A DNA stretch of 64,000 nt from a virus (Duplodnaviria > Caudoviricetes): the IMG/VR virus record IMGVR_UViG_2899275550_000002, positions 1,930-65,929 of that record, one strand, 5' to 3'. How positions within the stretch are numbered: position 1 is the stretch's first letter; each line of letters starts with the position of its first letter. Position numbers and translations under genes: made by a program. This document shows, one piece after another, positions 27,389 to 27,673 of this stretch. The notes below the pieces were generated by a model that was given only the letters and a program-made list of their open reading frames with translations, ran no database searches and was not told the DNA's origin.

Positions 27389-27442
27389 CACGACCGGCGC
27401 CCGGCAACGACCGGGCGTCACCACACACACGAGGGACGGACG

Positions 27443-27673
27443 ATGACGAAATCACGCGGCGGATATGGGCTGATGCGAACCTGTAGTGTCGCAAGCGGGC
27501 CCGTGTCCATCAGGATCGGTGAAATCACCGTCACCATCGCCCGTCTGCGGGACCAGACAGCCGATATCGGCGTCAAGGCACCACCCGAGATGTCCATCAC
27601 GTTCGAGGATGGCCGCTCCGTCCATGATACTGTTGAGAACGCTATTCGATCCGTGTTAAAAGACGAGCACTGA
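27443..27673 (+). CDS. CsrA/RsmA-like RNA-binding protein (divergent)
   Basis: IRIGEITVTI...ADIGVKAPPEMSI aligns by eye with CsrA LMIGDEVTVTV...VRIGVNAPKEVSV; the HREE motif is TFED. Confidence 0.7.
   Translation: MTKSRGGYGLMRTCSVASGPVSIRIGEITVTIARLRDQTADIGVKAPPEMSITFEDGRSVHDTVENAIRSVLKDEH

Follow-up and report, generated by a model that had tools for sequence, protein, structure and literature searches.

A diverged CsrA-like gene between the scaffold and capsid genes of a phage, and its possible role at late-operon leaders

The head module and its CsrA-like gene

The window, which is the whole 64,000-nucleotide stretch of phage DNA analyzed here, contains a head module in which a small open reading frame (ORF) lies directly downstream of a scaffold-like gene and upstream of the major capsid gene (Table 1). 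The sequence-only reading of this DNA had placed the ORF between scaffold and capsid, and profile matches of both neighbors bear this out. Genes for the large terminase and a P22-like portal are found upstream, and a virion structural protein is encoded downstream of the capsid gene. The capsid protein shares 48-54% identity with its counterparts in Bcep22-like podophages (Lessievirus, Gervaisevirus, Pavtokvirus, Lastavirus, Ittyvirus, and Namazuvirus) and only about 30% with those in Stx-converting and Vibrio phages. The window is part of a contig longer than 170 kb. Its closest relatives are Paracoccus records, and scaffold-like homologues precede the CsrA-like gene in all related loci. No tRNAs were found in the window.

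The ORF is a genuine gene under purifying selection. Pairwise comparison with two orthologues (loci L033 and L008) gave dN/dS values of 0.33-0.45, with dS of at least 1. The first ten codons are kept between the orthologues with synonymous differences, and the M11 codon is GTG (Val) in L033. Because the N-terminal extension is conserved in this way and the second methionine is not, the start is assigned to the ATG at 27443, which is preceded by GAGGGA, rather than to M11. The sequence-only reading drew attention to AGGGA and ACGGA motifs in the gene's own leader and suggested that the protein might also regulate itself. Both motifs are present before the ATG (27432-27436 and 27436-27440), but they carry little weight because they are simply the Shine-Dalgarno (SD) region. 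The suggestion of autoregulation through this leader did not hold up, since a GGA inside the gene's own SD is expected for any gene, and the relatives have zero or one GGA in the corresponding leader and no conserved hairpin there. A GC-rich stem-loop that follows the scaffold stop codon and precedes the CsrA-like gene might act in attenuation or in mRNA stability; L033 has a matching stem but another loop.

The 3' end of the ORF overlaps a putative promoter for the capsid gene, proposed from its sequence pattern. Its GTTG and TG.TA columns are invariant in seven related loci, whether the DNA is coding or intergenic. A scan of positions 27200-29500 for consensus promoters and terminators found nothing, the putative capsid promoter included. 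The promoter-like pair (GTTGAG or GTTGCG, 17 nt, TG-GTAAAA) lies upstream of the capsid leader in the window, L033, L008, and L070-L073. In four of these seven loci the last part of the CsrA-like ORF contains the pair, whose sequence there encodes a 'TVE...SV(L/V)K' helix; in L071-L073 the ORF ends before the pair, and the protein is without that helix. Because of this overlap, the invariant residues V64-E65 may reflect a constraint on the DNA.

Table 1. Features of the head module and of the late-operon leaders in the window
Feature	Position	Strand	Description
Large terminase	21457-23052		Upstream of CsrA-like ORF
P22-like portal	23973-26249		PF16510, E 3e-167; upstream of CsrA-like ORF
Scaffold-like gene	26246-27388	+	380 aa, acidic N-terminal half; phrog_8246, E 8.8e-37
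GC-rich stem-loop	27398-27417	+	CGCCCGG-CAACGA-CCGGGCG, read from the sequence
Own leader (Shine-Dalgarno region) of CsrA-like ORF	27430-27442	+	Contains AGGGA and ACGGA
CsrA-like ORF	27443-27673, stop included	+	76 aa, 'F-type' subfamily; K/R at CsrA position 4, F at position 44, 3-residue insertion after beta1, 9-residue N-terminal extension, C-terminal helix; profile, alignment, and model evidence
Putative capsid promoter	27633-27661	+	-35 TTGAGA 27633-27638, 17-nt spacer, -10 TTAAAA 27656-27661
Hairpin box of capsid leader	27681-27692	+	GCACAGGATGTG, short hairpin with GGA in the loop; contains CAGGAUG, the CsrB repeat unit
Long-range helix of capsid leader	27686-27736	+	GGAUGUG 27686-27692 with CACAUCC 27730-27736, abutting AUG
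Major capsid gene, Bcep22-like	27737-28855	+	PF13252, E 3e-58; phrog_334, E 4e-104
Virion structural protein	28919-29365		Downstream of capsid gene
Leader of DarB-like gene	40715-40763	+	Variant box ACAUAGGACAUGGG and helix including AUG 40758; heads 4394-aa DarB-like gene; MFE -24.7
Leader of operon after DarB	53990-54036	+	Exact box GCACAGGACGTG and complementary CACGUCC before ATG 54034
Leader of lysis cassette	60078-60124	+	Exact box GCACAGGACGTG and GGCACGUC before ATG 60122; endolysin at 61279

Relationship to CsrA and to Bcep22-like phage proteins

The profile matches suggest that the ORF product is a real, highly diverged homologue with the CsrA fold, as the sequence-only reading had proposed, and this is very probably correct. 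Residues 22-52 match positions 11-42 of the 53-position Pfam CsrA profile (PF02599) with an E-value of 1.6e-4. The score of 22 bits is below the curated gathering threshold of 27 bits, which places the protein outside strict Pfam membership, and the match covers the central strands only. A profile built from 12 subfamily sequences matches nine solved CsrA, RsmA, and RsmE sequences with E-values of 3e-5 to 1e-2, among them 7yr6, 2jpp, 1vpz, 1y00, 2bti, and 5z38 at 3e-5 to 1.4e-4. Ten of the 12 members match Pfam CsrA individually, none reported above an E-value of 2.8e-5. Comparison by hhalign with Bcep22 gp54 gave a probability of 89% (E 2.5e-6), and comparison with an alignment of five Bcep22-type proteins gave 68%; E-values over both runs were 5e-5 to 2.5e-6. 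An HMM from nine Bcep22-type CsrA-like proteins scored the ORF product at an E-value of 0.22.

The CsrA fold consists of five beta-strands and a C-terminal helix and forms an interdigitated homodimer. An AlphaFold2 (AF2) monomer predicted from subfamily rows only had a pLDDT of 50, with strands at residues 21-25, 28-36, 39-44, and 50-53 and a helix at 60-73. Foldseek found no PDB match for this low-confidence model. With an alignment of 26 sequences, which included Bcep22-type and canonical alphaproteobacterial CsrA rows, the pLDDT was 73 overall and 85-91 over residues 11-50. The best 13 PDB matches of this second model were all CsrA, RsmA, or RsmE chains (TM 0.65-0.75 by target), a result that is partly circular because canonical CsrA rows were in the alignment; beta1 and most of beta5 were not called as strands. 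An ESM Atlas model of the protein matches a CsrA cluster with a TM of 0.54. Taken together with the sequence alignments, the likeness to bacterial CsrA, RsmA, and RsmE (PF02599; 1y00, 2bti, 2jpp) lies in the beta2-beta4 region, the GVxAP turn, the predicted strand-strand-strand-helix order, and the best fold matches.

The subfamily to which the protein belongs, called F-type here, is rare. No PHROGs family was assigned to the ORF, and a tblastn search of its product against 50,697 GenBank phage records gave chance matches only. A word-based protein search found just three close relatives. An exhaustive search of 1.84 billion representative proteins gave 12 matches, nine of them small relatives; the other three are repeat proteins with 'ITFEDGS'-like repeats and were discarded as spurious. 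The subfamily amounts to about a dozen clusters in that library. Of 154 other genomes of the host genus, 5 had a member, whereas a search of 300 genomes of the host family, sampled one per genus, found none. Two members are already named in databases: a Paracoccus protein with 84% identity is a 'carbon storage regulator' at NCBI, and another is a 'Translational regulator CsrA' in UniRef. In every readable context (the window, L008, L033/L069, and L070-L073, which make up at least seven distinct prophage loci) the gene lies between homologues of the scaffold and capsid genes.

The residues that contact RNA in CsrA are altered. A gapless alignment through the GVxAP motif ('igvkappemsitfed' against IGVNAPKEVSVHREE) puts F54 at the position of E. 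coli R44, which agrees with the substitution of this arginine by phenylalanine noted in the sequence-only reading. CsrA L4 corresponds to R12, R6 and R7 to C14 and S15, and I47 to G57, so that the conserved RNA-binding residues L4, R6/R7, and R44 are absent from the product, and I47 is likewise not conserved. All 16 subfamily members examined have F, V, or I at position 44, none has R there, and 15 have K or R at position 4; in members that start directly with MLVKN or MLIRN, the K or R falls at CsrA L4. L4 and R44 are the most critical RNA-binding residues of CsrA, the R44A change abolishes RNA binding by the E. coli protein, and an R6-E46 salt bridge has been reported as essential in RsmE (PMC7652899, PMC6692469). 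The RNA surface is formed by beta1 and beta5 of opposite subunits lying side by side, and bases are recognized largely through backbone atoms (PMC7652899, PMC6692469). Because beta1 and beta5 adjoin across subunits, a swap in which position 4 takes the basic and position 44 the hydrophobic side chain could preserve the RNA surface.

Several Bcep22-like podophages have an annotated gene in the same slot, and the ORF product is a positional orthologue of their 'CsrA-like regulator'. Bcep22 gp54, JC1 gp47, Pavtok gp9, Claudette gp21, and SopranoGao gp25 are annotated as 'CsrA-like regulator' or 'carbon storage regulator', and Itty13 and POI1126 carry unannotated equivalents. The defining position is directly 3' of the scaffold gene in a Bcep22-like head module with a P22-like portal and a PF13252 capsid, and the ORF occupies it. 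The loci share the order portal, scaffold, CsrA-like gene, major capsid gene, as well as the size class, a capsid of about 50% identity, and a related hairpin box in the capsid leader. The proteins differ in their distance from CsrA. Seven of ten Bcep22-type proteins pass the Pfam threshold at 30-40 bits, whereas the window protein scores 22 bits, and most of them keep L4 and Arg44, while the window protein has K/R at position 4 and Phe at 44. The window protein also has the 3-residue insertion after beta1 and a different C-terminal helix. No CsrA-like gene was found in this slot in the Stx and Vibrio relatives. In the Ralstonia phage Claudette, an HNH endonuclease gene lies on the opposite strand (2813-3298) between the CsrA-like gene and the capsid leader. 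In Rhizobium/Agrobacterium-type relatives (an IMG/VR provirus, L010/G301, and L044) the head module is split: the portal, scaffold, and CsrA-like genes share a strand, and about 30 kb separates them from the capsid gene, which has a divergent GH108-type lysozyme gene upstream.

The class of phage CsrA-like genes is not new. It has been annotated since Bcep22, and a catalogue of 30 csrA-positive phages has been published, along with Burkholderia hosts that are without csrA (Sobrero and Valverde, PMC7366521). The novelty implied by the sequence-only reading was therefore overstated, since the slot is already annotated in Bcep22-like phages and in print (PMC7366521, PMC9144972). A literature search on phage 'CsrA-like regulator' genes found no functional study. 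What is new here is the rare, residue-swapped Paracoccus-type subfamily in a CsrA-free host, together with the set of four leaders described below. Other CsrA paralogues on mobile elements, such as RsmM-type alleles on Pseudomonas phages, the paralogue on plasmid pMBA19a of Sinorhizobium meliloti, and CsrT of a Legionella integrative and conjugative element (ICE), are also small and are sometimes found in hosts without chromosomal csrA (PMC7366521). In contrast to the window gene, they are near canonical CsrA (those of P. aeruginosa phages have about 63% identity to E. coli CsrA) and do not belong to a head module (PMC7366521).

The host lineage has no CsrA of its own, which confirms another point of the sequence-only reading. 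In the host genome (3.96 Mb, 100% complete) the only credible match to the CsrA profile is the ORF itself, and one further match is at chance level (E 0.25). CsrA was found in none of 150 sampled genera of the host family and in 49 of 250 sampled genomes of the host's class. Several of the Bcep22-type phages likewise have hosts without CsrA (Burkholderia and Ralstonia). A search of the window against Rfam found no family, and thus no decoy RNA of the CsrB/RsmY/RsmZ type was found there.

A hairpin box in the leaders of four late operons

Four late operons in the window are headed by leaders with a short hairpin whose loop contains GGA. The consensus is GCACAGGAYGUG, with three exact copies and one variant. 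The exact copies sit 39-50 nt 5' of the late-operon ATGs; in the capsid leader, GCACAGGAUGUG (27681-27692) falls in the 63-nt gap that separates the ORF from the capsid ATG. Against an expectation of 0.01, the window has three occurrences of the exact 12-mer GCACAGGAYGTG, and the other 3.9 Mb of the genome has only two more. Those two copies are on contig C46, at 49305-49316 on the minus strand and 66085-66096 on the plus strand, and the sequence around both is similar and rich in TGCACAG. The pair, oppositely oriented and separated by 16.8 kb, might delimit another element. The CsrB repeat CAGGA(U/A/C)G and a SELEX consensus have been described (PMC7652899), and the candidate sites in the window, with CAGGAUG or CAGGACG in a hairpin loop, resemble CsrB repeats.

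Each of the four leaders can fold in two ways. In one fold the box pairs with the nucleotides before the AUG, at -22.7 to -24.7 kcal/mol over the four leaders; in the local alternative GGA is in a hairpin loop. The minimum free energy (MFE) fold of the capsid leader (-23.3 kcal/mol, z -2.5) uses the long-range helix, which encloses a conserved inner hairpin and the SD sequence AGGAG. The inner hairpin (27694-27723; GUCGC...GUGAC) has compensatory changes across seven loci, and GUCUGUGA just 5' of the capsid SD is invariant. A general search for helices that occlude starts gave too much noise to be of use.

The long-range helix covaries among related phages, in which its two sides are GGAUGUGC:GCACAUCC, GGACGUGC:GCACGUCC, GGAAGUGCUC:GAGCACUUCC, GGAGUGUG:CACACUCC, and AUGAGUGC:GCACUCAU. 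In most lineages, pairing the two sides of the same leader gives a stronger duplex than nearly all combinations across leaders. Within one phage the box is uniform, and its form varies from phage to phage: GGA is found four times in the window, AUGA five times in G301 (CGCAUGAGUG), with five copies in G303, and AAGA twice in SopranoGao (CGCAAGACGUG). GGA is retained in all seven F-type capsid leaders. Elsewhere the loop letters are AUGA in Rhizobiaceae-type prophages, POI1126, and Pavtok, and AAGA in SopranoGao and Itty13. Bcep22 has the box in its capsid leader only. Several of the Bcep22 leaders upstream of gp49, gp63, gp67, gp69, and gp75 (L055/L056) share GGTGCG around TATAAT-like hexamers and have no GGA box.

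The uniformity of the box within a phage and the retention of GGA in seven F-type leaders fit a co-evolving trans-acting factor. The varying nucleotide of the box loop covaries with the pre-AUG base, and the first G of GGA can be explained by pairing with the base before the AUG. GGA may therefore be owed to RNA pairing alone. In Rhizobiaceae-type prophages the CsrA-like gene stays with the portal and scaffold genes, and the capsid gene and its leader are elsewhere. A proposed rule that GGA in the box tracks the presence of the CsrA-like gene was dropped, because these prophages carry the gene and yet have AUGA boxes, and GGA is thus not a universal requirement.

Possible functions of the CsrA-like protein

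Regulation of late phage mRNAs by the CsrA-like protein, which had been suggested from the sequence, is plausible, and the circumstantial evidence for it is the GGA hairpin box at four late operons. The most likely reading, with nearly an even chance of being correct, is that the protein is an RNA-binding activator of the phage's own late leaders that works by anti-sequestration. The protein would form a CsrA-type dimer and bind the 5'-proximal GGA hairpin of the four leaders. Once held, the local hairpin would leave the 3' half of the box unable to pair with the nucleotides that directly precede the AUG, so that the ribosome-binding region would open and translation of the capsid, DarB-like, post-DarB, and lysis operons would be switched on. 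The gene is part of the portal-scaffold unit and lies upstream of the putative promoter that serves the capsid gene, and for this reason late translation would be coupled to prior expression of the head-assembly genes. There is a precedent in E. coli, where CsrA opens an SD-sequestering hairpin in the ymdA leader (Renda et al. 2020, reviewed in PMC7652899). Common to ymdA and the proposed circuit is a hairpin in the leader that masks the ribosome-binding region until protein binds on the 5' side. The proposed system differs from ymdA in that the helix covers the spacer and start codon and not the SD, four operons are involved, and the regulator is encoded by the phage.

The activator model is supported by the homology to CsrA, the synteny, the purifying selection, the lack of a host CsrA, and the four refoldable leaders with GGA boxes. 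Against it stand the loss of the canonical RNA-contact residues, the loops other than GGA in related phages, the sub-threshold Pfam score, the separation of the capsid leader from the gene in Rhizobiaceae-type prophages, the restriction of the Bcep22 box to the capsid leader, and a peptide of JC1 gp47 in virions. A bolder form of the model is that the Paracoccus-type subfamily is a rewired CsrA (Leu4 to Lys/Arg, Arg44 to Phe/Val/Ile) that reads GGA and acts as the master translational activator of the four late operons. This is doubtful, and if it were true, the phage would own a complete Csr-type circuit within a host lineage that has none. The locus is in any case a clean system for studying CsrA-like function in phages, with a CsrA-free host, four look-alike leaders with an ON/OFF fold, and a regulator without the one arginine considered indispensable in CsrA. 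RNA binding by the protein would show that the CsrA fold can read GGA with different side chains and would give these phage genes a part in the timing of virion production. A protein that did not bind RNA would mean that head assembly has taken over the fold.

The protein is more probably an activator than a repressor of the phage's own late leaders. As a classical CsrA-type repressor, its dimer would bridge the GGA of the box (27686-27688) and that of the capsid SD (27725-27727), limiting or delaying capsid translation and setting, for example, the ratio of scaffold to coat. ACAGGA occurs twice in the capsid leader, in a hairpin loop and again in the SD, the 39-nt spacing is within the 10-63 nt that a CsrA dimer can bridge (PMC7652899), and most known CsrA targets are repressed. 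However, a repressor seems redundant, because the start region is already occluded by the fold of the capsid leader alone (-23.3 kcal/mol). The residue losses apply here as they do to the activator model, and the SD of the DarB leader is GGAG without a matching ACAGGA. This kind of repression is quite unlikely. A role in the head itself, with the CsrA beta-sandwich kept, RNA binding lost, and the protein acting with the scaffold or portal, is also unlikely, though less so. It would account for the loss of the canonical RNA-binding residues and for the behavior of the gene, which is a core head-module gene, always adjoins the scaffold gene even where the capsid gene has moved, and is conserved whether or not the host has a Csr system. 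It leaves the phage-specific, multi-copy hairpin boxes unexplained, and no head protein is known to have this fold. One peptide of JC1 gp47 was detected by mass spectrometry in purified virions, but a single peptide is weak evidence and was called unconfirmed by the authors (PMC9144972).

The JC1 authors read the gene as a moron (PMC9144972), that is, a host-directed gene. Applied to the window, the protein would be a CsrA-type global regulator that reprogrammes translation or metabolism in a host without CsrA and its antagonist sRNAs, and it would be unopposed because the host family is without CsrA. This reading is improbable, since the gene lies in a late head operon and not in a cassette expressed in lysogeny, its synteny extends across phages of alpha-, beta-, and gammaproteobacteria regardless of host CsrA, and the window yielded no decoy RNA. 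The last alternative concerns the box and not the protein, and the likelihoods given to these alternatives overlap in part. The box could be a DNA site for a late transcription factor unrelated to the CsrA-like gene: each box lies 10-25 nt downstream of a -10-like hexamer, and uniformity within a phage also fits a DNA-binding protein. There is little chance that this is so, because the 3' half of the box covaries with the pre-AUG nucleotides 30-45 nt away, which points to an RNA helix.
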